Shown here piece by piece: positions 1 to 45,480 of a DNA stretch of 59,584 bases. The stretch's first letter is position 1. Every line of letters begins with the position of its first letter. Source of the stretch: Macrostomum lignano (Eukaryota); contig NIVC01001417.1 in NCBI GenBank assembly GCA_002269645.1, positions 1 through 59,584 of the forward strand, read 5' to 3'. Below the pieces are notes generated by a model. That model saw nothing but the letters and a program-made list of their open reading frames with translations. It searched no databases and was not told the DNA's origin. The translations under genes and the position numbers were made by a program.

Positions 1-709
1 TTCCCCTTTTAGCGCAACACGTGAATTGTCATGATACTATTTTGGATCAAAAACTTGTCTATAATACAAGCGATCTGAAGCGGTACCGGAGCCATTCTCC
101 CACGGAAGAGGAGCGCTCCGAAGAGGAAGCCTTAGGAGGACTTCCTGATCTACCAAGTCAATCGAGACTCGGTCGAGTTGTTGGCGGTAAGCCTTATATT
201 GCGCCCGTTGTGTTAGAGACGTCTCGCTCAAGTCTATTGAGACTTGAGTCTAATTGAGTCTGTTGAGAACTCTTGAGTCTGTTTAGACTCCATTGGTTGC
301 AGTCTCCAGAAGGACTGCCCCTGATAGATCTTAGAGGACTATCAGTGGTTTCCGGAGCTATACCTAGAGTGCATAGAGGCACTGCTAGAAGAAGGAGGCT
401 TAATTTAGACGGCAGTTTGGCGCAGGGTACCCATTGTTGCTACGAGGCGCTCTGATTGGTCCTGACGCGAAGATACCGGCCGGAAGAACTTATCGGAAGT
501 ACAAGAGGAACCAGGACCAGAGCAACTGAAGAATCAAGGCGCCTGATCTACGAGATCTACTGACAAGTTCCTAGCGAGAACTACTCAAGAAATTCAAATC
601 CGGATTAAAGGTAATTGAATACCTTCGTTTGACTTACTGGTTGCCTAGCTGTTGAGCTAGAAGTGATTGTCCTTGATTATCGAAAAGTCGGGTAATAAGG
701 AACACATCA
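1..709 (+). repeat. 5' LTR (partial; about 153 bp lie left of the window)
   Basis: Base 1 aligns to 9725 of the 3' LTR; the shared sequence ends at ...GGTAATAAGGAACACATCA (709), followed by the PBS. Confidence 0.95.
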
Positions 710-711
710 AT

Positions 712-725
712 TGGTGATCTCGCCC
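712..725 (+). promoter_or_regulatory. Primer-binding site TGGTGATCTCGCCC (probably tRNA-Val)
   Basis: Starts with TGG 2 nt after the LTR CA end. Its complement GGGCGAGATCACCA resembles eukaryotic tRNA-Val 3' ends (from memory, not searched). Confidence 0.8.
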
Positions 726-1218
726 TCTCGGCACTACTCAAACCTTGAGCAATAGCCTGGCCAAGCTATTGTAAAGTGACGACAGAGCGACTTCATTAAT
801 TTTGCGCGCACGTGTTAGAGTTAACACTTTTTAAGTCCGTTACGTTTTGAAACTCGAGTAAAATTTGGTGTACAGGTTTGAGCACCTGTCAAATTTGAGT
901 ACAGTTTGAGCACGCGTGTTAAATTTTGTTTTAACGAGCTCGAGCAAGTGTGAGTTAAAATAAAACCGAAATTAAATTCATCGGTACACTGAAAACAAAC
1001 CAAAAATAAAAAGAATCGTCGACGCAAAACAAACAAAAAATAACTGAAACATTTTGCCGGCACAAAAACTAAAACAAAACCGAAATTAATTGAAACTTCG
1101 TGGAGAGCAGAGTTAATTGACAAAAGAGAGAGAGTCAAAGAAGAGAAGAAAGACTTTGCAAAGCAAGAAGACAAGTCCACTTCAACTTGAAGATACACTT
1201 TGCGGCGACGCCGCATAA

Positions 1219-2421
1219 GTGCGAAATCAGCAAGCGAACAGAACAAGTTCATTTGAGGACAACCAGTGGCAGCAAGCCACACCGCATCCGAGGCCAGCGA
1301 ATAACAAATCGACACCACAAGGCAATTCGTTACAGTCGAGGTTTATTCCGAGGCAAACACCACACTGGACGATCGCGTTACAAATCGATCCAGATCTTGA
1401 AACTACCGTTCTACCTCTATCAACAACATGGCGCGGCGCAAATCCAACGGTACACAGAGACATCAAAGAAACGGTCGGTACTTTCTCGATGGAGAAAGAT
1501 TTTAACACATTTGTCGACCATTTTGACCTGGTATGTAGGGAATACAACCTACAAAATCCAGAGAAGGCACAGCTGCTGCCACCTCTTCTCCAAGGTACTG
1601 CGCGAGAAATTTACGGCAAGCTGGATGCGGCAACACAGCAAAATTATCCAGCACTAATCATTCAACTGCGCGCGCATTTCAACCGTTGCGGCACAAACAG
1701 ATCAGTGCTGCTGCACAAGTTGCATAAAGAAGGATGCAAGCAACAGAATCCTTCCTCGCCTTTGTGGACGATAATCCGCCAGATAATTAAGGCACTGCAT
1801 CAGCCACCGCTGCAAGCTGCGGACAACCACCACTGGGAGCGGCAGAATTGGCCGCCAGAGAAAGACAACGATTGATGGATCGCGAACAAAACCTCATCCT
1901 GCACGTAATAAACAACGCACAGCGTCACTTCGGGATAGACTTTTGCTTTTGACGTGAAAATATCGAAACCGAAGAAGACCTTTTGCGGTGCGGAATGCAG
2001 TGGGAAGCCAGTGCCCATTAATGACGACAGGCAACAATGAAGTGCAGAAACTGACGCAGCAATTAAACAAGTTAATGCAGCACCAGACAGCTGCTATCGC
2101 CGAACAAAAAAGACGAAATGAACAAGCCTCAGCCAGATGTTACTACTGCGGACAAGAAGGACATTATCAGATTAATTGTCCTCATTGGTCAACAAGATAC
2201 GACAAGCCGCGACAGATATTCAACAATCAGAAGCCGCAGAAACCATGGCAGCAATATCAAAATCGCCAACAACAAGGCATAAGACGCTTCGGAAATGATA
2301 GACGCTTCGGAAATAATGACCGCTCCGGAAATGATGGCCGCTTCGGAAACGAAGGCCGCTTCAGAATAATGGCTACAGGCCACGCAACGTCAGATACACA
2401 CAAAGACAGCCGACGCAAGCA
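1219..2421 (+). CDS. gag: Gag (capsid plus CCHC nucleocapsid), broken by several 1-nt indels; true start not resolved
   Basis: Gypsy CA-like segment FSMEKDFNTFVDHFDLVCREYNLQNPEKAQLLPPLLQGTAREIYGKL; zinc knuckle CYYCGQEGHYQINC at 2138-2179; RFGND repeats after it. Base 1219 is a GTG from the ORF track, not an ATG. Confidence 0.85.
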
Positions 2422-3283
2422 ATGCCACGATACGCGAATGCCATCACGTACACACCGGAAAATGAACAGCAAGAACAGCAAGTGTTCACAATTGACGACT
2501 TGGAAATGGACTTCACAGTCCCGGAACTTGACATCAGCTTGATCGAAAAGAAGACGACGCACGAGGACAACACTGACAACACAGAAGAGACGAATGAAAC
2601 CGAAATGATCAAATTAAAAGAGACCACCGGAGACAGCAGAGAAAACAGGAAGAAAGTAAATCACAAGACAAGGGAGGAGGCGGAGAGCGACATCGGCAAC
2701 GAAGAAAAGATGAAACCGGCGAAGAAAACAACTATGAATCGACAACAGTGGATGACGACAAAACGAGCATGAAAGACAAAGAAATGAAAGAAGAAGAAGA
2801 ATGTAGAAGTTACGGCAACGACCACGACTGCGAGGTGCGTGATGACACGAACGACTACCAAGCCGAAAGAGGAATGCAGGAAGAACGAGAGCGGAGAATC
2901 TAAGTTCCGACAGCGATCAAGGCTACGAAATACAATGGAAAGATGAAGAAATGGAAAAAGAACAGGTGAAAGAAAAGCCGAGTTCCGACAGCGACGAATG
3001 CTACGAGATCCGATACAAACGAAATGGTGAAGCCTATATTCAAACGGTCGACTACAAGACAGAGAAAAGATACCAAACGCAATGGAGTGAAACAACGGAA
3101 ACATCGGAAGAAGCCGCAGACGAAGATAATGAAATAACCAAAAAGCAAAGCGAATCAGAAGCCTTCCGCCTGGATCAGCCAATGGAACAACCGAAAGAAT
3201 ATGATGCGGACATGGAAGATAACGAATGGCGATCGCAGCCAATGCCAGCAAGGACAACGGCAAAATCCAAGAAGTGGAAAAAC
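2422..3283 (+). CDS. Acidic low-complexity spacer between Gag NC and the Env signal sequence (frameshifted in assembly)
   Basis: E/D/T/K-rich reading frames chain across 2422-2772, about 2745-2900 and 2890-3283; duplicated motif SSDSDQGYEIQW / SSDSDECYEIRY. Confidence 0.65.
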
Positions 3284-5349
3284 TGGCTATTCTGGATCAT
3301 CGTGATACTACTGATAGCAGTAGTCGCCAAAGCAACGGCAACGGAAAAGCCAATGATTTGTCCAACGGATGCGCATATCCAACCGATGATCTACAAGATA
3401 CCAACCGACATCAAATGCAGTTACTTCAAGACAAACCAGACAAAACCAAAGAAGATTACACTCGATCTCTACAAGGCTAACATCAAGAAGCATCGACAAC
3501 ACGGGATAGTATGCTTCAGAGACAAGCACCTGGTGGAAAAAGTTTGGCGCGGACAATGGAACCGGATCCGATTTAAACAACATGAGCTACATGTGTCGCA
3601 CGCGGAATGCCTACAATGGAATCAAACACTATTTTCAAAGGATGGTGAACTGGAACCAGATGAGAAGGTCGGCAACGCACAGCTGTTCAGAACAAAGAAT
3701 TCAGCCAACGGTCGATATATTCACTTCTTCGGAAAATGGAAAGAATATATGGCACGCAACAGCTACTTGATCAGAAATATTCCATTCTACTACAATCCGT
3801 ACGAGAAAATGGAATCGTTACAGCTGCAACTAAGCGAATGTCGATACAGTGAAGGATGGTGTCCAACGCCGATTCTACGGAAGGAAGAACTACACAGTCT
3901 ACCACTGAGTCCAACATATCATCAAGACTATCGATGGCAGATTGAGCACAGAGCACAATCACACTATGAGGAACCGTACAAATCACGACAATATTTCTTC
4001 GCATGTGAAGTTGAGCCGGAAATTGACTGCAAGCTTCAAAAGTATCACACAGTGAAGGAGGACTACTGTCAAATACGTTTTTGGCAAAGTCAGGAGACTT
4101 GGCACTGACGTTTCAAAAGAAACCAGTCGAGCAAAAACTGAAATGCAAGGATACAGACAAGACACTATTCATCTCGGACAAGAATACCAGTCTACGTAAA
4201 GGATGAAGACAAACAAACCTTCTGGCAATCATCAATGGAACGTATCAGCAACAAACAGAGAGACAACGACGCGACATCGAACGTCCAAACTGGTGTCAAA
4301 CCGCTGTGTCAGCAAAGATAACGGCTTTGGATCACAATCTGCATAACCAGTTAAACCACTTGCATCGAACACTGGTTCAGCTAACTTGCAAAATGCACGC
4401 AATCAACTTAAATTATGCAGACAACTACTATGTCAACCCTACGATGACATTTCGCAAATCACGGAATGAGAACGTTTGGCATTCCAATATACGAGCATCT
4501 GTTGATATACAAGTGCACGCCGATACAGCACTTTAACATCTTGCCGTCGAACACGTCAACAACTTGCTACGACAAGCCAAGATTGAAGCGTTCTACGAAG
4601 GAAAAGATTCAGGATTCTTGGACACGGTACACAACATCATCGTTGGCACCGCAATACCGAGACCTTGCACCACGGCAGTAAACTACTATCAACTGGACAA
4701 TGCACTACACGTCATCAAAACAACTGGAACGACAGCAAACGTCACAGAACCGGAAGTAATCGTCGACGAAAACTACGACATGGAGGATTTGAAAATCCGA
4801 TTCAACAGAACGAAGTATACGCCATTCGCCGATATCCAACTTGACGAGATAACACCAGGATGGACGATCAACGACTTCTTGCAAGCGTTCATCACCCAAC
4901 GCAAGATGATTCACCAGCTGTTCACAAGAAAGGACAAAGGAACCGGGACAGGAAGATTTCCCGTCCTTGTTTCAATGGACAGCGCCATCAAATCATTTTG
5001 GACAAATAGCTTCTGGGAGCTGCTCAATGGAAGAGGCAGTCTCTATCAAGGATTCATCTTCTACGGTGCTTGCATTGTGTGGATTGTCACGGCAATCTTC
5101 ATCATTTCATCGATCGTACGGTGCTTCAGTCAAACTTGTCCAAGAGCTAAGAAGACAGTGAATGCCATAATGCAAAGAACGACAACGGAAAGCGACAACA
5201 GTTTAGAACTAACAGAAACTGCACATTGTGAGGTTCAAGGGCAACCGACACTAGCAACGCGGCTATATCCATCGATTCCGACAACACCAACGGCACCAAG
5301 GATACAACCACCCAACTATCAAGCAGAACAGCACGAGCCAAAATGGCCG
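3284..5349 (+). CDS. env: Envelope glycoprotein, class III fusogen (herpesvirus gB-like), with TM and cytoplasmic tail; several 1-nt frameshifts
   Basis: Hydrophobic signal WLFWIIVILLIAVVAKATA (3284-3340); Cys-containing ectodomain; RQRR furin site (4261-4272); gB-like helix/NPT, C-T-P, CYxxP and PC motifs; TM FIFYGACIVWIVTAIFIISSIV (5053-5118). Confidence 0.85.
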
Positions 5350-5690
5350 GAAAACTACGTCTGTACGCTACACGCCGAGATTGGCAAAGCAATGGCTCAG
5401 GTCATTGTCAACAACTTGCCATGTCGAGCACTACTGGATTCAGGCAGCTCGATCACAGTCATCTCGCAACAATTATGCAACAAGCTACGACTCGCGGTAC
5501 GACCAGCAGCAATCGCAGTTGCAGGAGCAGGAGGACATTCGCTCAACATCCTAGGAAAAGCAGATATACTTGAAAATTGCTAATAAACAGCTGACGGTCC
5601 CGACGTACATCATCGACAGACTACCAAACCAAGACGTCATCGTTGGAATCGACACGTTCAAACAGCTTCACTACCATTGACCTTCGACTT
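5350..5690 (+). CDS. pro: Aspartic protease, in frame with the Env C-terminus
   Basis: ALLDSGSSITVIS (DSG at 5437-5445), flap VAGAGGHSL, and DVIVGID in the adjacent frame after a 1-nt shift near 5570. Confidence 0.92.
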
Positions 5691-7650
5691 CAACAAGCAA
5701 ACGTTTAGGATCGACGCGGTGGAGCAACCGCTGATCAATCAGATTCGAGTACTACCGAAAGTAACTCTGCAGCAAGATGTCATCATCCAGCCTGAAAGCG
5801 CATGCTGGGTCAGAGCGAAAACGACCAGCGCGGCAGATGAAGCAATGATATTTGATCCACACAGGAGAGTCACGGCAAAACATCAAATCATGATGCCTAC
5901 GGCACTAGTGCTGGTTGCAAAGGATAAGCAACTGCCAGTACAAATCTTCAACCCGAACACAGAAACGGTTCATCTACGACAAGGAATGTGCATCGGTCAT
6001 CTCAACACCCAAGCATCGGTTATGCTGATTGAACAAGCGACTCCACGACTAACAGAGGAAGAATTTCAAAAGAAGATCAATTTGGATGACAGCCCGATTA
6101 CGGAACAGCAAAAGAGGAAAGTTCGACAGCTGTTGTGGAAGTACAACGAAGCCTTCTGCCATCATGATTACGACATCGGACGAGCCAAGGACATCAAACA
6201 GGAAATCAAACTTCTGCCGCACACGGAACCAATTCAGTGCAAGCCGTACCCGATCGCCAAGCATCTGCAACAACACTTTGACGAAATCATCGATAAAATG
6301 CTAAAGCACGGCATCATCAGCAAAGCTATTTCGGCTTACTCCTCACCGTGCCTACTGGTACAGAAGAAGGAGACAAACGAAAGACGACTCGTATGCGACT
6401 TCAGACTGTTGAACAAGTACATACCGACGGATCAGCAAAGCCTACCGAAGATCTCCGAACTACTAGCAAAGCTCAACACGGCAAAATTGTTCACGGTGTT
6501 CGACCTACGTCATGGATTTTGGCAAATTGAAATCGAGAAAGAGTCACGACAGTACACGGCTTTCAAAACCTACAATGGACAAGTATACGAGTACAATCGA
6601 TCGCCGATGGGACTTAGCAACAGCCCAGCAACGATGAGTCGACTAACAGCATACATGCTAGCAGGATGCACGAACCTGCTGCACTATGTCGACGACATTT
6701 TAGCCTACGGAGAGGATTTCGAGCGACTCTACGAAGCTACGGAGAAGGCCCTAGCGCTCATTCAACGCCAAGGTCTGAAGCTACAACCAACTAAATGCAA
6801 ATTCTTCCGAGACAACGTGCGTTACCTGGGACATCAGGTGACAGCCAAAGGAATCTCACCGGACCCAGACAACGTGGAAAAGGTGAAGAAGTTTCCTACG
6901 CCAACCAGTATAACGAAGGTCCAATCATTCCTTGGACTTGCGCAATACTTCAGGAAGTTCTTACCTAACTTCGCAAAGACAGCAAAGCCACTGTACGACC
7001 TGCTCAAGTTCGACAAATGGAAGCAAGACAACTGGACACAGAGACAACAGGAAAGTTTCGACGAAATCAAACGACAGCTGACATCAGACGCACTGCTACA
7101 GCATCCGGACTTCGACAAGCCCTTCATCATCGAGACAGACGCCTCAGGAACGGGACTCGGAGCAGTCCTACTACAGGAAACCGAGGACAAGAAGGAACGA
7201 CCTATTGCTTACGTCAGTCGAGCACTCAAACCAAATGAGACAAAGTGGTCAGCTACGGAACGAGAGCTACTAGGAGTCTTGTTCGCCCTGCGACAGTTTC
7301 ATTACTACATCTATGGTTCTCCAATACAGACGATAGTACGCACGGATCATGCACCATTGACCTACGTCGTAACTACAAAAGGACAGACCAACAACCGACT
7401 CATCAGGATGACACTCAAGATCCAGGATTACAACTACAAACTCGTCTACAAACCAGGAATTACCAACAAAGCCGCGGACGCCCTGTCAAGAGCCTATGAA
7501 GTCAACGCCATTCATCCAATCCCTAACATCAAGGAGTTGGTGGATGAAACCGAGCGCGACAACTTCTACCAAGCGGTTAAAGACGACGACAAGAACATCA
7601 AACTCAGCCCATGGAACGAAAATTCCTACGCAAGCAACGACAACACCTAA
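5677..7650 (+). CDS. pol: Pol: pre-RT domain, reverse transcriptase and RNase H
   Basis: SSPCLLVQKK, RLVCDFRLLN, DLRHGFWQI, PMGLSNSPA, HYVDDIL (6685-6696), YLGH; RNase H ETDASGTGLGAVL, ERELLGV, TDHAPL, ADALSR. Confidence 0.97.
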   Translation: MTFDFNKQTFRIDAVEQPLINQIRVLPKVTLQQDVIIQPESACWVRAKTTSAADEAMIFDPHRRVTAKHQIMMPTALVLVAKDKQLPVQIFNPNTETVHLRQGMCIGHLNTQASVMLIEQATPRLTEEEFQKKINLDDSPITEQQKRKVRQLLWKYNEAFCHHDYDIGRAKDIKQEIKLLPHTEPIQCKPYPIAKHLQQHFDEIIDKMLKHGIISKAISAYSSPCLLVQKKETNERRLVCDFRLLNKYIPTDQQSLPKISELLAKLNTAKLFTVFDLRHGFWQIEIEKESRQYTAFKTYNGQVYEYNRSPMGLSNSPATMSRLTAYMLAGCTNLLHYVDDILAYGEDFERLYEATEKALALIQRQGLKLQPTKCKFFRDNVRYLGHQVTAKGISPDPDNVEKVKKFPTPTSITKVQSFLGLAQYFRKFLPNFAKTAKPLYDLLKFDKWKQDNWTQRQQESFDEIKRQLTSDALLQHPDFDKPFIIETDASGTGLGAVLLQETEDKKERPIAYVSRALKPNETKWSATERELLGVLFALRQFHYYIYGSPIQTIVRTDHAPLTYVVTTKGQTNNRLIRMTLKIQDYNYKLVYKPGITNKAADALSRAYEVNAIHPIPNIKELVDETERDNFYQAVKDDDKNIKLSPWNENSYASNDNT

Positions 7651-8896
7651 CAATCAATAAGTCACGGCTCTACTGGATGAGCGACAATAAACCCAAGATC
7701 TACATACCATATTCGTTTCGGCAAGCAATTCTCAACGAGCTACACGACAACCCACTCGCTGGACACCTGTCGGCACAAAGACCATCGCGAGAGTGGAACA
7801 ATACTACTTTTGGCCAACTATGTACGGCGACATCAAGCAGTATTGCAACAACTGCCATTCATGTGCTGCATCAAAGACAGGACGACGACAGAAACCGCAG
7901 CTACAGTCCATTCCGAAGTCGACTACAATGGACTGTCTAAGCATCGACATCACCGGACCGCTACCACCGAGCTGTCTCCAGGGCATCGCCTACACCTACA
8001 TTCTAACCGCCTTGGATATCTTCTCGAAGTTTGCTATCGCCATACCGATACCGGACATCACAGCTCAGACAGTGGCAATGAGTTTCTTCAACGAAATCAT
8101 TTGCAAGTACGGCACGCCGAAGAACCTCACATCGGACAACGGATCGCAGTTTACATCGCAACTGTTTCAGCAAGTCGTAAGGATTCTCAACATTACGCAG
8201 ATCTACACATCGACCTACAATCCGAAGGCAAACATGGTTGAACGGTTTCACCGCAACCTGCACGAGATGATTACACATTTCGCGCACCAACAGCCGGAAG
8301 ACTGGATCATCTACCTGCAATCTGTAACAATGGCCTACAACAGCGCTATTCATCGATCAACGGACAATACGCCATTCTTCCTAATGTTTGGACGAGACTT
8401 CCAACCGCCGAATCTGCTCGCACAGCAATTGCTACCATCGCAGTACGTGGAAGTACCGACTTCCATTCAGAAATTCGTCACGCAACTACACCTCGCATGG
8501 AAGATCGCCAAGCACAACATTGACAACCAGGTGGCTCTGACCACCGGCAACGACGCGAGATCGACAACCCTGACGGCCGGCGACATCGTCTACCTACACT
8601 ACCCGCCACAGCAGACGCATAAACATGCACAGAAGTACAAAGGACCCTATCGAGTGGTCCAACTAACGTCACCAACAACGGCACGCCTGGCTAATGTACA
8701 AGATCCACATCAGCACCAGTTCTACGTACACATTCATCGACTAAAGAAGATCAACACTGACACAGCGACGTTTCTACCGACATTAGACAACGCTGATCGC
8801 ACGCGTTCAACGAACCGCCACATCGCGACGAAGCACGAGGAGACTCAAACGACAGATGTGAGCCAGCCACATGGCTACAACCTACGACCACGCTAG
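7611..8896 (+). CDS. int: Integrase (HHCC zinc domain, DDE core, GPY/F motif); one 1-nt frameshift near 7780
   Basis: HDNPLAGH...CNNCHSC; IDITGPL, SDNGSQF, VERFHRNL; KYKGPYRVV; C-terminal HGYNLRPR then TAG. Confidence 0.95.
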
Positions 8897-9016
8897 AGTT
8901 TAGAGAACAACCCCGTGTAGTGACCGGGATAAAGAATAGCACTACAGCTTCGCAAGCTTGTCGTAAAAGGCGACTAATCCGAGCGACACAAAGACAGCGA
9001 CAAATTGACGACAATT

Positions 9017-9391
9017 ATGGGCAACGCACTGTCAAAACAGGCGCCCCAGCCTCAGCAGCTATATGACTGCCCGATATGTTTAACTGATGACTTGGCTGTC
9101 AAGCCACCGACTATTTGCATCAATGGACATAAAGTTTGCGGACAATGTTTAAGTGATTCACACTATATTCAGCCCTGGCAGAATTGTCCCCTCTGTAGAG
9201 ATAGTTTGCGACAATGTGCCTATTGTTATTCTTGGCGCACGTTTCAATATTGTAACCATCAACATTTTATTTGCATGCACTGTTTGAAGCAAACCGCTAG
9301 TAGGGGCGTTATAGGATGCCCCTTATGTAATAGTATGCCGCGAGACTGCACGTTTCGAAAGTGGTGTCGGATCAAACCTGATGCCACTTGA
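9017..9391 (+). CDS. Accessory ORF: 124-aa tandem RING-finger protein with N-myristoylation motif
   Basis: ATG at 9017 gives MGNALSKQ (MGxxxS). Two C3HC4-like arrays: CPIC..CINGHKVCGQC..CPLC and CAYC..CNHQHFICMHC..CPLC. Uninterrupted ORF inside the element. Confidence 0.85.
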   Translation: MGNALSKQAPQPQQLYDCPICLTDDLAVKPPTICINGHKVCGQCLSDSHYIQPWQNCPLCRDSLRQCAYCYSWRTFQYCNHQHFICMHCLKQTASRGVIGCPLCNSMPRDCTFRKWCRIKPDAT

Positions 9392-9556
9392 TGTCTACGC
9401 GATATTCGAGTTTTGACCGCAATATGTACTGAAAAGTTTTTAGAGTTTTGACCAAACCCTCGCTTCACTAGACGCGCACAAAATCAATTGTTTATTTCCT
9501 ATATTAACTGATCACCACAGAATTTTATTGTTAAAACTCGGGACGAGTTTTTTCGT

Positions 9557-9568
9557 AAAAAAGGGAGA
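9557..9568 (+). promoter_or_regulatory. Polypurine tract AAAAAAGGGAGA
   Basis: Purine run ending 3 nt before the TG that starts the 3' LTR at 9572. Confidence 0.85.
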
Positions 9569-9571
9569 TTT

Positions 9572-10435
9572 TGTAGAGTGTTCTACCTCCCGTTAAAAAA
9601 GGAAAAAAGAAGATAATCGTATAATACTACTATAAGTAAGTAAGTACACGCATGTGCGCCTAAGCTTTGAATGAATCACGCTACCAGAAAAAGATGTTAC
9701 CAGAATAATACGCCATGAGCCATTTTCCCCTTTTAGCGCAACACGTGAATTGTCATGATACTATTTTGGATCAAAAACTTGTCTATAAATACAAGCGATC
9801 TGAAGCGGTACCGGAGCCATTCTCCCCACGGAAGAGGAGCGCTCCGAAGAGGAAGCCTTAGGAGGACTTCCTGATCTACCAAGTCAATCGAGACTCGGTC
9901 GAGTTGTTGCGGTAAGCCTTCCTTATTTGCGCCCGTTGTGTTAGAGACGTCTCGCTCAAGTCTATTGAGACTTGAGTCTAATTGAGTCTGTTGAGACTCT
10001 TGAGTCTGTTTAGACTCCATTGGTTGCAGTCTCCAGAAGGACTGCCCCTGATAGATCTTAGAGGACTATCAGTGGTTTCCGGAGCTATACCTAGAGTGCA
10101 TAGAGGCACTGCTAGAAGAAGGAGGCTTAATTTAGACCGCAGTTTGGCGCAGGGTACCCATTGTTGCTACGAGGCCTCTGATTGGTCCTGACGGAAGATA
10201 CCGGCCGGAAGAACTTATCGGAAGTACAAGAGGAACCAGGACCAGAGCAACTGAAGAATCAAGGCGCCTGATCTACGAGATCTACTGACAAGTTCCTAGC
10301 GAGAACTACTCAAGAAATTCAAATCCGGATTAAAGGTAATTGAATACCTTCGTTTGACTTACTGGGTTGCCTAGCTGTTGAGCTAGAAGTGAGTGTTCTT
10401 TGATTACCAAAAGGCGGGTAATAAGGAACACATCA
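9572..10435 (+). repeat. 3' LTR, 864 bp, TG...CA
   Basis: Starts TGTAGAGTGTTC and ends GAACACATCA; TATAAATA at 9784-9791; repeats 1-709. Confidence 0.93.
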
Positions 10436-10600
10436 TCTGCATCACTCTCTGCATCACTCTCTGCCTCACTCTCTGCATCACTCTCTGCATCACTCTCTGC
10501 ATCACCCTCTGCATCACTCTCTGCATCACTCTCTGCATCACTCTCTGCATCACCATCTGTCTCCCTTTTCCTCACCTTCTGCCTCACCCTCTGCCTCCCC
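10433..10600. repeat. 12-bp minisatellite (GCATCACTCTCT)n directly flanking the 3' LTR
   Basis: Visible tandem copies. Confidence 0.9.
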
Positions 10601-11139: not shown

Positions 11140-11650
11140 CATATTACTCTCTCGTTCCCCTCTCGCTCGCCTCTTGTTCCCCTCTCGTTCCCCTCTCGTT
11201 CCCCTCTCGTTCCCCTCTCGTTCCCCTCTTGTTCCCCTCTCGTTCCCCTCTCGTTCCCCTCTCGCTCGCCTCTTGTTCCCCTCTCGTTCCCCTCTCGTTC
11301 CCCTCTCGTTCCCCTCTCGCTCGCCTCTTGTTCCCCTCTCGTTCCCCTCTCGTTCCCCTCTCGTTCCCCTCTCGTTCCCCTCTCGTTCCCCTCTCGTTCC
11401 CCTCTCGTTCCCCTCTCGTTCCCCTTCTTGATCCCCACTCGTTCCCCTCTCGTTCCCCTCTCGCTCCTCTTTCGCTTCCCTCCCGCTCCCCTCTCGCTCC
11501 CCTCTCATTCCCTTCTTGTTCCCCTCCCGTTCCCCTCTCATTCCCCTCCCGTTCCCCTCTCATTCCCCTCTCGTTCCCCTCTCATTCCCCTCCCGTTCCC
11601 CTCTCGCTCCCATCTCGTCCCCCTCTCATTCCCTTCCTGTTCTCCCGTTC
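11140..11650. repeat. Pyrimidine-rich 11-bp repeat (CTCGTTCCCCT)n
   Basis: Visible tandem copies. Confidence 0.9.
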
Positions 11651-11749: not shown

Positions 11750-12294
11750 CTGCGGGCGGAGCAAAGTGGGGATGGTTAATAGAGGGATAAACTGGGAATA
11801 AAATTGAGGGGGGGAATAATTTGGGATTTCAAAGGCAAATTATGCTAGCGCAAGCTGGTGCCCGACTGAAGTCGGTCCTGCAGTAATCAGTGAACACGTT
11901 GCAGCTTGTCGCACCTGATAAGCATACAGCCCCCCAAGGCGGGGCACTTCGCATAATGAAAGCTCAAAGGGAATTTTATCCCATCTGTTTTTGGGATTAG
12001 CTTTTATTCGAAATTAAGATAAAAAACAGCCAGCTGCGAAGATGATCAACTTGAAATTCGCGTCAAAGGAGACGGGCGAAAGAGGCGGCTGGTCGGCTTT
12101 AATTATTTTATGCCCCCCCGTGTCTTCACGGCTGTCGTAGCGAGCAAAAGATGAGATGGTCTTTTATTAATCCGTTATCGATCTCACTCGGAAATTAGAT
12201 TTCAGTGTGCGATAGCGATAAATAAAATTTGATAGAGATTGATGCAAATTAATTAAGATTGGTTGAGACTGATAAAAAATTGATTGCGATCGAT

Positions 12295-13800
12295 CGAGAT
12301 TGATAAACATTGATAGACATTGATAGAAACTGATAGACATTGATAGAAATTGATAGACATTGATAGAAATTGATAGACATTGATAGACATTGATAGACAT
12401 TGATAGACATTGATAGAAATTGATAGACATTGATAGACATTGATAGACATTGATAGAAATTGATAGACATTGATAGAAATTGATAGACATTGATAGAAAT
12501 TGATAGACATTGATAGACATTGATAGAAATTGATAGAAATTGATAGACATTGATAGACATTGATAGACATTGATAGACATTGATAGACATTGATAGACAT
12601 TGATAGACATTGATAGACATTGATAAAAATTGATAGACATTGATAGAGATTGATAGAAATTGGTTGAGATTGATAGAGATTGATAGAGATTGATGGAGAT
12701 TGATAGTCATTGGTAGAGATTGATAGAGATTGATAGTCATTGGTAGAGATTGATGGAGATTGATAGAGATTGATGGAGATTGATAGTCATTGGTAGAGAT
12801 TGATAGAGATTGATAGTCATTGGTACAGATTGGTAGAGATTGATATAGATTGATAGAGATTGATGGAGATTGATAGTCATTGGTAGAGATTGCTATATAT
12901 TGATAGAGATTGATGGAAATTGATAGTCATTGGTAGAGATTGCTATATATTGATAGAGATTGATGAAGACTGATAGTCATTGGTAGAGATTGATATAGAT
13001 TGATAGAGATTGATGGAGATTGATAGAGATTGATAGAGATGGATTGAAATTGATAGAGATTGATAGAGATTGATAGAGATTGATGGATATTGATAGTCAT
13101 TGTTAGAGATTGATATAGATTGATAGAGATTGATGGAGATTGATAGTCATTGGTAGAGATTGATAGAGATTGATAGTCATTGGTACAGATTGGTAGAGAT
13201 TGATATAGATTGATAGAGATTGATGGAGATTGATAGTCATTGGTAGAGATTGCTATATATTGATAGAGATTGATGGAGACTGATAGTCATTGGTAGAGAT
13301 TGATATAGATTGATAGAGATTGATGGAGATTGATAGAGATTGATAGAGATGGATTGAAATTGATAGAGATTGATAGAGATTGATAGAGATTGATGGAGAT
13401 TGATAGTCATTGTTAGAGATTGATATAGATTGATAGAGATTGATGGAGATTGATAGTCATTGATAGAGATTGATAGACATTGATAGAAATTGGTAGAGAT
13501 TGATAGAGATTGATAGAGATTGGTTGAGATTGATAGAGATTGATAGAGATTGATAGAGATTGGTTGAGATTGATAGAGATTGATAGAGATTGATAGAGAT
13601 TGATAGTGATTGGTAGAGATTGATAGAGATTGATAGAGATTGATAGAGATTGAAAGAGATTGATAGAGATTGATAGAGATTGATAGTGATTGATAGAGAT
13701 TGATAGAGATTGATAGAGATTGATAGAGATTGATAGTGATTGATAGAGATTGATAGAGATTGATAGTGATTGGTAGAGATTGATAGAGATTGATAGAGAT
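12295..13800. repeat. 10-bp minisatellite (TGATAGACAT / TGATAGAGAT)n in CELF intron 2
   Basis: Visible tandem copies with variant blocks. Confidence 0.95.
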
Positions 13801-13843: not shown

Positions 13844-13926
13844 CCCCGGCAGGGTGCACTGGTCGTGCAGCACCGACTGACAGCGGATAGCGCTGTCCTT
13901 CTGGGCGAACGTCAGGAATGCGCAGC
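13844..13926 (-). CDS. CELF: CELF coding exon 2 (83 bp, RRM1 RNP1)
   Basis: cag|GC TGC...GCAFLTFAQKDSAIRCQSVLHDQCTLPG|gtgagt; phase matches exons 1 and 3. Confidence 0.92.
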
Positions 13927-13959
13927 CTGCGGGCGGATCGGAGCGGCATAAATTTCTTG

Positions 13960-15220
13960 CACACCCCTGCCTGCCCCTCTTGCACACACCTGCCTGCCCT
14001 CTTGCACACCCCTGCCTACCCTTTTGCACACCCCTGCCTGCCCCTCTTGCACACCCCTGCCTGCCCTCTTGCACACCCCTGCCTGCCCTTTTGCACACAC
14101 CTGCCTGCCCTTTTGCACACACCTGCCTGCCCTTTTGCACACCCCTGCCTACCCGTCTTGCACACCCCTGCCTACCCTTTTGCACACCCCTGCCTGCCCC
14201 TCTTGCACACCCCTGCCTGCCCTCTTGCATATCCCTGCCTGCCCTCTTGCACACCCTGCCTACCCTTTTGCACACCCCTGCCTACCCCTCTTGCACACCC
14301 CTGCCTGCCATCTTGCACATCCCTGCCTACCCTCTTGCACACCCCTGCCTGCCCCTCTTGCACACCCCTGCCTGCCCTCTTGCACATCCCTGCCTACCCT
14401 CTTGCACACCCCTGCCTGCCCCTCTTGCACACCCCTGCCTGCCCCTCTTGCACACCCCTGCCTGCCCCTCTTGCACATCCCTGCCTACCCTTTTGCACAC
14501 CCCTGCCTGTCCTCTTGCACACCCCTGCCTGCCCCTCTTGCACACCCCTGCCTGCCCCTCTTGCACACCCCTGCCTGCCCCTCTTGCACACCCCTGCCTG
14601 CCCTCTTGCACACCCCTGCCTGCTGCCCTCTTGCACACCCCTGCCTACCCTTTTGCACACCCCTGCCTGTCCTCTTGCACACCCCTGCCTGCCTTCTTGC
14701 ACACCCCTGCCTGCCCTCTTGCACATCCCTGCCTGCCCCTCTTGCACACCCCTGCCTACCCTCTTGCACAACCCTGCCTACCCCTCTTGCACACCCCTGC
14801 CTGCCCTTTTGCACACCCCTGCCTGCCCTCTTGCACATCCCTGCCTGCCCCTCTTGCACACCCCTGCCTACCCTTTTGCACACCCCTGCCTGTCCTCTTG
14901 CACATCCCTGACTGCCCCTCTTGCACACCCCTGCCTGCCCTCTTGCACATCCCTGACTGCCCCTTTTGCACACCCCTGCCTACCCTCTTGCACAGCCCTG
15001 CCTACCCCTCTTGCACACCCCTGCCTGCTGCCCTCTTGCACACCCCTGCCTGCATTCTTGCACACCCCTGCCTGCCCCTCTTGCACACCCCTGCCTGCCC
15101 TCTTGCACACCCCTGCCTGCCCCTCTTGCACACCCCTGCCTGCCCTCTTGCACACCCCTGCCTGCCCTTTTGCACACCCCTGCCTGCCCTTTTGCACACC
15201 CCTGCCTACCCTCTTGCACA
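13960..15220. repeat. 22/23-bp minisatellite (TTGCACACCCCTGCCTGCCCTC)n
   Basis: Visible tandem copies. Confidence 0.95.
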
Positions 15221-15324
15221 CCTGTGGAGATCTACCTGGTTCCAGAATGTTTCGGAGCGAGTTAATAAAGCTCATGTTTTATTAAAAATTGAATATTATC
15301 GACTAACAATTGAATTGTAGAGGT

Positions 15325-39614: not shown

Positions 39615-41553
39615 CCAGACCAAGGTGTTAGACAATAGGGCTGAATTTACATGGCAATGTACAATGTTTTGGAATAGCTTTGTTTATAGCCTTCTCTGCT
39701 GCTCTGCACCCCCATCAAGAGGCTACATTTAGCCATTGTAATAAATTGCACATTGCAGTAAAAAAATTCAAACCCAAAACATAGTAGGCCTACAAAAGTG
39801 TGCTGGATTCAGGAAAATTTATAAACTATCTTAGCAGAGCAAAGGCCAAAGTCGAAAGCTATGAATACAGCATACAATGCAAGCATGATAAGAAGGAATT
39901 AAATCAAAGGCTATGCTAGATTGATAATATTCTTTCAAGAGGCTCTTCATATTGCTTGTTCTGGTTCTAGAACCAGAACCAATTTGTAAAGTATAACTTT
40001 TTGTCTCCTTAACTAGAGGGATATACTTGCTATAAACTCTTAATTATTGAATGAAAATCGTCAAGAAGAAAATGAAAAATTATGCAAAGTGAGGCTGTTA
40101 AGGCAGTCAAATATTAACAGAGTTAAATAGTTATACTGCTGTTTTTCTTGGAAGATCCGAACCGATTCTGGTTCTGGAATTGGTAATGTGAAGAGGCTGT
40201 GAAGAATGTGAAGACGCACTGCTCTATTAAGCTGTTTACCTCCAAAAATTATTGAAATTCGAATTTCGAACAGATAGCCTAACCACTTGTACACAAATTA
40301 TGCATTAAAAATATACAATTTAGAAAGACTAAATGTAATATTTAAAACTTTAAGAGACATAGGAGGTCCAAAACACTATTATCGATTTCTTAAAGAAAGA
40401 AAAATTAAAGCGCTGCATTGTTTTACTTATTATTTCATTTCACCCTAACTATTTAAACTAAGATTGCGATGTAGTTTCATGAATCAAAAAATTTTAGTGA
40501 ATTCTCAGATTTTTTAATTTCTTAGAAGAGTACACTCAATTTAGCAACATCTGTAAGTCGATGTAACATATTAGCGGAAGTCGAGGTCCCATCTATTGAG
40601 CAATCTCTTAGCACAAAGTAGTATATTGCAATATTTGTTGTATATTTCGGTCCCAGGTCAATTCGGTGACAAGACATTTCGGTGACAACAACTTCGGTGA
40701 CAACTTGGGACGTTTCGGTGACACCAGTGGTCAATTCGGTGACAAGCTTTTTAGACTTGATTTGACTATTTTTCGTTGTTAAATATTAAAATATAGCTGT
40801 CACTATAAACTCTTATTAAAGTATTGATGGTTCGTATGCTATCAATTATCATTTTGTTTGAGTGCGTTTCGAGGCATAATCACTTATAGCGCGCACTTAA
40901 TTTTATCCATACTTTTCATTTTTCAACTCAAATCAACTGTCAACGATCCAATTGATGATTCGATTTTTTGTACTACATCTACTACATGTACATGTATTGT
41001 AGATGTACATGTACATGTACGTCTTAAAAGCCATTGAACGAGTTTAGAAAACAACTGTATACCTATAGCGTAGCTTATGACTGTATATACGAGTATGTTA
41101 TGTGCTAATTCAGGGACTAAGGCAAGGGGCGCCAATAGGGGCGGACCCGCGGATAGAGCTTGATAGAACTTATTGACCCCCCTAATTAAAACCTAAAAAC
41201 TTATTAACCCAAAAACTTATTGAGCACCATTTAAACTAGATTTTTCGCCTCCTACACGCATTTTTGCACCCCTAGCTTAAAATAAATTAGCGCCCCTCAT
41301 ACTCATGTTGGCGCCCAAAACTTGGACCGACGCCCCCCCTTTCGGCCCCCAAATGAAATTCTAGATCCGCTACTGTATGTGCGCCTCACAGAGTATAGGT
41401 TACGAGTGTGGGTGAGTTGGCTTGAAATTATCTTGTAATTAGTTTTGGCGCTTATTGACAACTGTCCTGTGCGTGTACAGTAAACTTATGGTCGCGGCTC
41501 GTGACCATGTCAACATAAACACGTACATGTGTATAAATGTAAAGTCATTTTAG

Positions 41554-42252
41554 TCCCTTAAAGCCATTTTAAGGGAAGTTCAAAGATTCGCTCCCGATTT
41601 CTCACCCGCGAGATTCGTTCTCGACTATGAGCAGCCAGCCTGGAAGGCGGTTCAATGCATCTTTCCGCAGGCTGAAGTGCAGGGCTGCAATTTCCACTGG
41701 ACCCAGGCAGTCTGGCGAAAAGTTCAGAACGTGGGTCTGCAGCAGTCCTATCGTGATGATGATGGCACAGAACGGTTCGTCCGGAAGTTGATGGCACTGC
41801 CGTACCTGCCACGTGACGAGATTAACGAGGTGTTTGAAAGCCTCCGAGCTTCGCAAGCTGCTCAGGTAGACGAAAGGCTGCAGGAACTATGTGAGTACAT
41901 TGGCAGTACATGGTTGGGCGAAGGCAGCAACTGGAAAGCGGATGACATTTGCGTGTTTGGTCAGCCCATCAGGACCAACAACGACCTGGAGGGCTGGCAC
42001 TATCGCCTAAACCGTAAAGCTGGGAGGCGCAACCTCCAGTTCTATCTATTGCTGCAACTGCTCCACGAGGAAGCTATCCTGGTGCCACTCCAGGCTCACC
42101 TGCTGTCCAGAGGGGTACTGCGTCGAGAGCAGTGGCAAGGGTACCACACAGTTCAGTCTCGTTTATTTCGCTACTGGGCGGAATATGAACAAAGTACTCG
42201 AAGCACTCGGCGGCTGCTTAAATCCTGTGGTCGTCTCTTTAATCCGAAGTGA
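41554..42252 (+). pseudogene. MULE transposase C-terminal exon (N-terminal exons absent)
   Basis: Open from a tttag acceptor: ...FVLDYEQPAWKAVQCIFPQAEVQGCNFHWTQA...RTNNDLEGWH; first catalytic D motif not present. Confidence 0.88.
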
Positions 42253-43441
42253 CATGACGACTGTGTTGCACCAAAGACTACATATGTACTAGACATATAC
42301 ACCAGACTGTACATGTACTAGAATCGAAGGCCGGATATTTAGGGAACTATACTACTCGTGTATACCATGTACTCTCGCAGTAGCGCAACCAGAAATTTGT
42401 TGAGGGGGGGGCGAATCATTCGCTTGGTCCCCTTTGATTTTTTCCGGTGTCCCCGAAGGAGGGGCAACCGCCCCCCCCCGGTTGCGCCACTGTGAGTATT
42501 CTGACAGTGATCAGAATAAATGAGTATTCTGATTCGTATACTCATTATATTAAATACTGTACTGTACATGTTGTGTCGACTTGTGTTGACGCCTTTTTTG
42601 GTGCAAATATGTTTACTGCTTAGTTCTCTGTCCTTACTAAAATACACTGCTAAATAACTCAACTATCATTCCGCTCATTATACTATCGATTCATATACTT
42701 GCACTGCACTGTAACTACTGCTTTGAAATAGCTTGATTTAGTAACGACAATAAATTTGTTTACGAAAATCAGACACCAAGAAGAAGCTATAGCTTTTGAC
42801 TATACATCAAAGGGGGGAGGGGGCGGGGGGCGCGGTCGGTCCAAGTTTTGGGCGCCAACATGAGTATGAGGGGCGCTAATTTATTTTAAGCTAGGGGTGC
42901 AAAAATGCGTGTAGGAGGCGAAAAATCTAGTTTAAATGGTGCTCAATAAGTTTTTGGGTTAATAAGTTTTTAGGTTTTAGGGGGGTCAATAAGTTCTATC
43001 AAGCTCTATCCGCGGGTCCGCCCCTATTGGCGCCCCTTGCCTTAGTCCCTGAATTAGCACATAACATACTCGTATATACAGTCATAAGCTACGCTATAGG
43101 TATACAGTTGTTTTCTAAACTCGTTCAATGGCTTTTAAGACGTACATGTACATGTACATCTACAATACATGTACATGTAGTAGATGTAGTACAAAAAATC
43201 GAATCATCAATTGGATCGTTGACAGTTGATTTGAGTTGAAAAATGAAAAGTATGGATAAAATTAAGTGCGCGCTATAAGTGATTATGCCTCGAAACGCAC
43301 TCAAACAAAATGATAATTGATAGCATACGAACCATCAATACTTTAATAAGAGTTTATAGTGACAGCTATATTTTAATATTTAACAACAAAAAATAGTCAA
43401 ATCAAGTCTAAAAAGCTTGTCACCGAATTGACCACTGGTAT

Positions 43442-44496
43442 TGAGGCGGGGGTGGAGGAGAGTTTCTTGGAAATTGGGCGGTTTTGAAAATTTGCTGACA
43501 CCAGTGAGCTGGGCGGATTCCTCGTTTGAATTTCCGCCGAATGTTGAGTTCGCACGAATAAAACCGGAAAAATCGCGCAGACGAATCTCAACAGGAAAAT
43601 CTTTCTCCTTTTACTCCGGCTGCCGGGTTCTCAAGTCCGGGGGGAGGGTAGTCGTAATCGTAGCGGAGCGGTCGTGTAGCGGCGAGGTCGTTCAAATCGA
43701 TGAAACACTGTAATTGGAGATTCCTGACTCCGTAAAATAATGCGTCGAATAGCTGAGTTTGCTACTTTCAGTAGGGTAGTTGCTGCCACCACCGTAATTT
43801 ACGTATTACGGAACGGATAAGTCCCAGAGCTATCTTTGAGATGAGGACTTGGTTATTTTATGCCCCACGGGCAAATGATTCAATAAAACGCTATGGCTTA
43901 ATGTCAACGGATAAATATAGATTAATGTATGGTTAATGGTTAACGTTATTATTATTAACTGTAAGCAGGCGAAAGTAAATAATATTATTATTGTCGACGA
44001 GGATGATGTTCGCAGGCGGTACCTGGGTGCTGAATGCGATCGGGATTTAATACAACTGGGCGCGCTGAATATTAAGTACGAACAGAAAGGAAAAAAACGC
44101 GGGCACAGAAGAGGAAGAGAAAAGGGAGCGGGAGAGAGAGGGAGCGACAGCAATTACACCAAAAGATAAGGGGTTTAAATAGACCGCAGAAATGGTTCTC
44201 ACAATGGAGCAACGGCTGGGCTAGGTGATGGGCACGCACCATTCACAACATGGATTTTCGAAAAAGTTACCGTAATGAGCGCATTTTAACAAACCTCCAG
44301 TATGAGGGCATGCATGAACACCGCGTGGATTAAACGGTGGACAAACCCGATGGACGAAGTCCAACTCGGGGAAAGGTTGGACTCGAACCACGCTAAGGAA
44401 AAAAAAACAGAAACGAAGCATCACGCGGACAGTCAAAATTAGTCACCGTCACAGGTCCCGTTCACTAAAAATCAACAGTGGCATCCGCCTGCCACA
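43442..44496 (-). mobile_element. Solo LTR (1055 bp) inserted in the right TIR of the MULE
   Basis: TG...CA ends with imperfect inverted termini TGAGGCGGG / TGTGGCAGG; 4-bp TSD GTAT (43438-43441, 44497-44500); TATA-like TATTTAAA on the minus strand near 44175. Confidence 0.85.
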
Positions 44497-45480
44497 GTAT
44501 CACCGAAACGTCCCAAGTTGTCACCGAAGTTGTTGTCACCGAAATGTCTTGTCACCGAATTGACCTGGGACCGTATATTTCATTTCTATTCTGAAAGCCA
44601 ATTTTGGCCATTAGGGCAGACCTCACACGTCACACTTAAGGACTGCTTACTGTTACTTATACCATGACTACAGTAAGGACATTATTTTTGTAATAAAACC
44701 AGACAACAGATGACTTTATAAAAAAGCTCTTTATTCTAGGCCTACTAATATTAGGGTTAGACCCTACTAGTACTACTAAGCCTAAAGCAAAAAATATAAA
44801 TTGTAGGCCTAATATATTTAATATACATAATACCATATAAGGGGGCCTAACATATCATGACATATGTAAAATAAGAAACATTTTAGGCAATCCTCTAGTT
44901 TTGCATGTCTAATTATTTTTCAAAAAATAGCTACTAGTTGTTAATTACTGCAAGTAAATTTTTGAACTTGCATGAGTGTAAAACATGGTAGTGACATGGC
45001 AGACATGATCAATGTTATGTTTATAGGCCTAGGCCTAGTTATTAGTTTGATTTAAATAAAGGCTATGTGTATAGCAAAAACTTGCAATTGCTCCTTGTTT
45101 TTTTAATGGGACTGTGATTCTGAGAGATTTCTTGCCTTAGCCCTTACTTAGACCTACTTTCCTAAACAATCTTGATTATCAATCTTAATAAGCAATACCT
45201 CTTTTTGATCATGGCTAGATGCCCTGCAGTACATTGCAGCCATTGCTATTTTTATAGCACTGTTGCTACCTATGTTACATTTTCAGCAAAATACTTTTTT
45301 AGGTGGCACACTATTACAATATCTAATGCAACTAGACATGATATAACAAACTTGCTAATTGTTAGTTAACTTTGTTAAAAGTCCATTCAAACTTTATTTA
45401 ATTCAAAAAATAATTAAAATATATGTTAAACTTGAGGATTATCCAAATTTTAATACATTGATAAAATGATTTACTTTTTC

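Follow-up and report, generated by a model that had tools for sequence, protein, structure and literature searches.

Retroelements with a GAG-ENV-POL layout and a gB-type envelope have been described in nematodes, bryozoans and flatworms by Chary and Hayashi (PMC13524379), who call the spread of env-bearing retroelements outside Drosophila elusive. Their catalogued gB-type errantiviruses have a Ty3/gypsy pol, a gB-type env between gag and pol, an ectodomain between two hydrophobic helices and many near-identical copies, and the catalogue lists one Macrostomum lignano element, with 16 copies. We analysed a window of 59,584 nucleotides from this flatworm (contig NIVC01001417.1), in which an LTR element of the same build occupies positions 1-10435. 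It matches the row Platyhelminthes_Rhabditophora_Mlig_errantivirus_2 in the supplement of that paper, with an LTR of 863-864 nt and an equal primer-binding 12-mer. Since the M. lignano element is catalogued there, the element and its layout were already known; supplement file 3 holds no row for it. The difference lies in the motifs of the Env tail and in a RING-finger ORF, neither of which we found in that source. Its main text makes no mention of late domain, ESCRT, PTAP, budding, cytoplasmic, RING or accessory.

The motifs themselves are familiar from retroviral Gag proteins, where the same three classes occur several together and free of position (HIV p6 with PTAP and LYPxnL; MLV with PSAP, LYPAL and PPPY; EIAV p9; PMC8402826). 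That review describes multiple, movable late domains as typical of retroviral Gag and matrix proteins, and it mentions neither a cytoplasmic tail nor a retrotransposon. Whereas the late domains of retroviruses lie in Gag or matrix, the family studied here has no late motif on the Gag side of its first transmembrane helix, and all three follow the Env anchor, on the Pol-bearing chain. Some membrane proteins also have late motifs that attract TSG101 or ALIX from the cytosolic side: bluetongue NS3, E-cadherin through P(S/T)AP (PMC9511404), and Toxoplasma GRA14 through PTAP and LYPxL (PMC13532356). Unlike the present element, none of these three proteins is a retroelement fusogen fused to Pol. Within the non-subscription literature, we found no paper on late domains or TSG101 in gypsy retrotransposons, and Env-tail late domains of such elements are unreported in titles and abstract openings.

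All parts of the element lie on the + strand, and we refer to its family as the focal family. The 5' LTR (1-709) is truncated by the window start and is 97.5% identical to 9725-10435, with 6 mismatches and 11 gap openings. It is followed by the primer-binding site TGGTGATCTCGC (712-723), the 12-mer identical to that of the published row. The gag region (1219-2179) ends in a CCHC zinc knuckle (2138-2179; Pfam zf-CCHC), and pol (5350-8896) comprises a protease with the motif LLDSG (5431-5445), RT, RNase H and an integrase with GPY, all recognized by Pfam. A polypurine tract (9557-9568) and an 864-nt 3' LTR (9572-10435, TG...CA) close the element. The LTRs, the primer-binding site, the polypurine tract and the PR-RT-RH-IN order are those of a Ty3/gypsy LTR retrotransposon. 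The window copy is broken in gag, ectodomain and pol, with reading frames ending at 1875, 2542, 4108, 4536, 5583 and 7650. In unbroken copies a single frame of 2,538 aa encodes Gag, a 366-aa acidic spacer, the helix TM1, a 570-aa ectodomain, the helix TM2, the tail and Pol, which places env between the CCHC knuckle and PR. The Env tail is therefore not a free C-terminus, as the frame continues through it into PR-RT-RH-IN. The spacer between zinc knuckle and TM1 (window ~2180-3280) is 23% Asp+Glu; in other families it measures 105-343 aa and is less acidic.

TM1 (3284-3340), behind this long spacer, is a predicted internal signal/anchor helix that precedes the ectodomain (3341-5049). In unbroken copies, which provide the evidence for this region, the ectodomain has 12 Cys and 6 sequons. 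It was classed with the Atlas PF24664 clusters (score 0.94), and its Pfam match to PF24664 (E 8e-6) is below the cut-off of that entry. A structure model of its C-terminal half (pLDDT 69) matched herpesvirus gB with an E-value of 2e-8; this model had 87 PDB matches at E<=0.001, with gB in all matches listed and TM-scores of 0.31-0.39. By these three lines of evidence the ectodomain belongs to class III (gB-like), with the modelled fold covering its C-terminal half, outside the fusion-loop half. In family D (L075), another env-bearing family of M. lignano, a Thr/Ser-rich, mucin-like insert of ~220 aa lies inside the ectodomain. TM2 (5050-5106; hydropathy 2.43 over 19 aa) is the C-terminal transmembrane helix of Env, and the cytosolic tail or Env-protease linker (5107-5349) ends in a WP dipeptide, which may mark the N-terminal cut of the protease.

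Between pol and the 3' LTR lies an accessory RING-finger ORF (9017-9391) of 124 aa from its ATG, with Pfam RING matches under the cut-off. It is kept in related copies, with 222 aa in the copy L062, and in sister families at 50-55% identity. The copies L062, L066, L107 and L118 have another, distant RING ORF behind the first, and none was seen within 0.8-1 kb after IN in L078, L084 and L105. Five genome contigs (C272, C4009, C1063, C1064 and C1405) hold several relatives of the ORF clustered within a few kb. The product may be an E3 ligase that counters host defence, or it may assist the PPxY route. We dropped an arenavirus-Z-like reading, prompted by its MG start: its counterparts in sister families begin with MD or MA, the ORF contains no late motif, and the Z match scored 0.88. 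Outside the element, long satellite arrays with 12-, 10- and 32-nt units adjoin it (10436-10560, 11150-11650, 12150-13800, 13900-15250 and from 16740 onward), and positions 40648-44573 contain near-perfect inverted repeats with arms of 463, 153 and 77 nt, which may be a DNA transposon or stem from the assembly.

By translation of the + strand, the tail carries LYPSI at 5263-5277, PTAP at 5287-5298 and PPNY at 5308-5319, exactly where the sequence-only reading had placed them. ATR precedes LYPSI, PTT and RIQ separate the three motifs, and QAE follows PPNY. The motifs are in frame with TM2 and with the LLDSG motif (Pfam Asp_protease_2). The frame 4537-5583 encodes the helix 5050-5106, then 52 residues, then LYPSIPTTPTAPRIQPPNY at 5263-5319, and then the protease with LLDSG at 5431. 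The 19 residues that had been described between the transmembrane helix and the protease are the length of the cluster itself, which begins 52 residues past the helix within a linker of ~80 aa (108 aa up to the catalytic motif). PTAP matches the TSG101-UEV-type pattern P[TS]AP, PPNY the WW-domain-type PPxY, and LYPSI the ALIX-V-domain-type YPx[LI], with I as its last residue. That final I, previously called a non-canonical replacement of L, is indeed present, but it is the commoner form in this lineage (6/7 families). The short LYPxL pattern of ELM permits I. The three motifs are the sole matches to these patterns in the unbroken polyprotein, and none of 200,000 shuffles of the window tail contained all three classes. 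As expected of late domains, they lie on the predicted cytosolic side, a topology taken from hydropathy; they are conserved above their flanks, PPxY within the focal family only; and they are free of position.

A DNA search of the genome gave 74 candidates, 40 of which were scored: 27 at >=98% and 13 at 91-92% identity. With 27/40 scored matches at 98% or more, the focal family is young by this measure, and several of its copies are intact and near-identical. All three motifs were present in 30/30 loci from this search, among copies that are 91-100% identical. From 62 fetched loci, which include some copies twice, we obtained 17 distinct haplotypes of TM and tail. Nine of the ten core motif residues were fixed across them, and the wildcard positions varied. 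PTAP occurred in 16/17 haplotypes and read PPAP in the other; Y, P and I of LYPSI were fixed, as was S56, with L or M at the first position; the P, P and Y of PPxY were fixed, with N, T, I or G at x. Variable positions made up 1/10 of the core compared with 21/40 of the linker outside the cluster (Fisher p=0.029). In the same haplotypes, neither the N:S ratio (p=0.10) nor the whole-cluster test (p=0.09) was significant. A comparison of the two closest subfamilies was uninformative for motif conservation because their tails barely differ.

The subfamilies are mosaic: synonymous divergence among L062, L064, L074 and L102 switches just past the motif cluster (window ~5330-5350), in opposite directions by pair, pointing to recombination at the border between Env tail and protease. 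On contig C2447 of the assembly (G000), two copies at positions 187009 and 196738 lie 9,729 bases apart, about the element length minus one LTR, and are likely tandem copies with a common LTR. None of the runs listed is recorded as RNA. The element is covered by contigs of four runs whose RNA origin is a guess, and these include pieces that span TM and cluster, which speaks to presence only; no joint listed for these contigs removes the cluster. A database gene model (P0002) that omits exactly the cluster region and another stretch of env was taken as a prediction artefact.

We next compared the tails of related elements. Four protein searches of the genome yielded env-bearing elements that fall into 10 families when their tails are clustered at 80% identity and L118 is counted with the focal family. 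In the RT tree, where L082 gave no RT row and the row of L108 is a neighbouring env-less element, the env-bearing families group in a single clade (94/93) that comprises three deep lineages at 38-45% RT identity. As the ten families share ancestry, they amount to about three deep lineages rather than ten trials. Tails are 15-28% identical between lineages. P[TS]AP occurred in 8/10 tails compared with 0.27 expected, and [LMI]YPx[LI] in 7/10 compared with 0.05 expected, each reached in 0/2,000 shuffles. I at the first position of the latter pattern was added after data inspection, and the strict form [LM]YPx[LI] occurred in 4/10. With the focal family left out, the counts were 7/9 and 6/9. Family C is represented by L071, and 4/5 of its copies have PTAP. 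PPxY was found in the tail of the focal family and in 0/9 others; three families have a single tail motif, and L082 (contig C103) lacks every motif as well as a WP ahead of its protease. The WP dipeptide is kept in 9/10 families. The YP motif precedes PTAP in the focal family, and PTAP comes first in the five others that have both, 8-25 aa apart. Such shifts in order and spacing are expected of position-independent late domains (PMC8402826). The tail motifs look selected. Relative to the surrounding tail, conservation thus holds for P[TS]AP and YPx[LI] across the env-bearing lineage of this genome, but not for PPxY or the cluster of all three, which is confined to one of ten families.

Of 63 env relatives outside this genome, we set aside two host entries and 19 that were incomplete, without a clear TM or without an ectodomain match; the remaining 42 have a TM followed by 60 or more tail residues. 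P[TS]AP was found in 5 of these tails, compared with 0.40 expected, and 9 had at least one motif, compared with 1.5 expected. The proteins contained 10 motifs in 4,764 tail residues compared with 11 in 49,062 residues elsewhere, so that tails are about nine times denser. Env-less elements mostly lack the motifs. Among 115 outside RT relatives, 66 were without a TM and had a protease motif preceded by 100 aa or more; within 160 aa upstream of PR, P[TS]AP occurred in 3 of them, slightly above shuffles (3/500), PPxY in 2 and YPx[LI] in none. In M. lignano, 0/20 env-less loci, which had no env by tblastn and several of which are redundant, carried the motifs in gag, PR or RT frames of at least 200 aa. 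The excess of the external env tails over the external env-less controls is weak (P[TS]AP, p=0.26; any motif, p=0.044). From these counts, the feature is strong in this M. lignano lineage and patchy elsewhere.

The host encodes the partners that such motifs would need: TSG101, ALIX and WW-HECT ligases. The UEV domain of its TSG101 (E 1e-44 to human) keeps Y68, N69 and M95 and differs from the human domain at Y63 (H) and F142 (V). Positions 63 and 142 line the PTAP pocket, and these two differences are a point against the budding reading given below. Host ALIX (E 1e-150) keeps the equivalent of F676, and in 2/6 regions examined the HECT matches are preceded by WW domains. A predicted complex of the host ALIX V domain with 40 aa of the tail scored 0.56 compared with 0.43 for a control, to which we gave no weight either way. 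The tail probably binds ESCRT adaptors.

The explanation that we favour, as slightly more likely than not, is that the tail motifs are working, ESCRT-recruiting late domains through which budding would proceed by the Env-Pol half of the polyprotein. TM1 would act as an internal signal, leaving the ectodomain luminal and the tail and Pol cytosolic. Signal peptidase would cut after TM1 and yield a membrane-anchored Gag and an Env-tail-Pol protein with its tail facing the cytosol; budding signal, fusogen and enzymes would thus be on one chain. At the budding site, the tail would bind TSG101 through PTAP and ALIX through LYPSI, and in the focal family also a NEDD4-type ligase through PPxY. ESCRT-III and VPS4 would then sever the enveloped particle, either from the plasma membrane or into endosomes, and the protease would later release Pol near the WP site. 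ESCRT recruitment through the glycoprotein tail, as first proposed, is in keeping with the conserved P[TS]AP and YPx[LI] and with the host partners, but the full cluster is found in the focal family only, and just 9/42 external tails have any motif. ESCRT motifs in membrane-protein tails can also sort proteins to vesicles (PMC9511404), so the "real enveloped particle release" of the sequence-only reading is a further step that we infer.

The main rival, which we consider rather unlikely, is that the motifs do bind ESCRT but for ends other than virion scission: they would direct Env(-Pol) to multivesicular bodies or extracellular vesicles, or dispose of the excess Env that results from 1:1 production with Gag. 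The same conservation data fit this, and with a single frame Gag and Env must be made in equal amounts. The P(S/T)AP of the E-cadherin tail drives TSG101-dependent vesicle loading (PMC9511404), and GPCRs are sorted to lysosomes by ALIX via YPX3L (PMC3341166). However, late motifs also occur on the Gag side, in the spacer before TM1 (PPPY in family C, a second PSAP in D and PPRY in F), in keeping with a requirement for them at any position where budding takes place. If the particles budded into endosomes, this explanation and the favoured one would coincide.

It is improbable that ALIX is uninvolved and that LYPSI serves instead as a YxxPhi signal for AP-2 endocytosis, or is cut by the element protease as an aromatic-Pro site. 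All seven YP instances, including LYPSI, do fit YxxPhi, which occurs in 10/10 tails (4.4 expected); in 4 families the motif starts just 7-11 aa before WP, and Y|P is a retropepsin type of site. However, all seven also have Pro after Tyr and L, I or M before it, neither of which YxxPhi requires, and three families have the motif 24-27 aa away from WP. P[TS]AP and PPxY would also remain unexplained.

Still less probable is that the linker descends from a p6-like end of Gag, which the insertion of env between NC and PR left stranded downstream of Env and which may now be cut free or be a leftover, an account of origin that is compatible with function. HIV p6 does sit just before PR, and 3/66 external env-less polyproteins have P[TS]AP in the corresponding 160 aa. 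Against a relic, the env-less loci of M. lignano have none of the motifs (0/20). The motif order varies by family, the gain of PPxY in the focal family is unlike a neutral relic, and motifs also occur in some external matches without a protease motif after the TM, several of which may be incomplete. Finally, chance matches in a Pro/Thr-rich disordered linker are hardly credible: the tails are proline-rich and 33/42 external ones have no motif, but composition-preserving shuffles, letter-order controls (rearranged versions of P[TS]AP turn up in 0-3/10 tails) and variation restricted to wildcards reject them.

On the sequence evidence, then, the tail motifs are a real, selected feature of a catalogued element that we did not find in print in the non-subscription literature. 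If they are late domains as we favour, a wider and more tentative scheme is possible, in which the retroviral arrangement is inverted. The elements would form infectious enveloped particles from a polyprotein split by signal peptidase, with late domains on the Env-Pol half; scission would occur only where fusogen and enzymes are present, Pol would be packaged without a Gag-Pol frameshift, and late domains would shift from one to the other of the cytosolic spacers on either side of Env.

Conserved late domains provide sequence evidence, independent of the fusogen fold, for the use of host membrane-scission machinery. With late domains on a fusogen tail that is fused to Pol, assembly would follow a different scheme from that of retroviruses, which is driven by Gag. 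M. lignano offers a direct test system, as a flatworm with transgenic tools and a young family with intact copies. The motifs on the inner tail of the envelope suggest that these elements exit the cell as membrane-wrapped particles.
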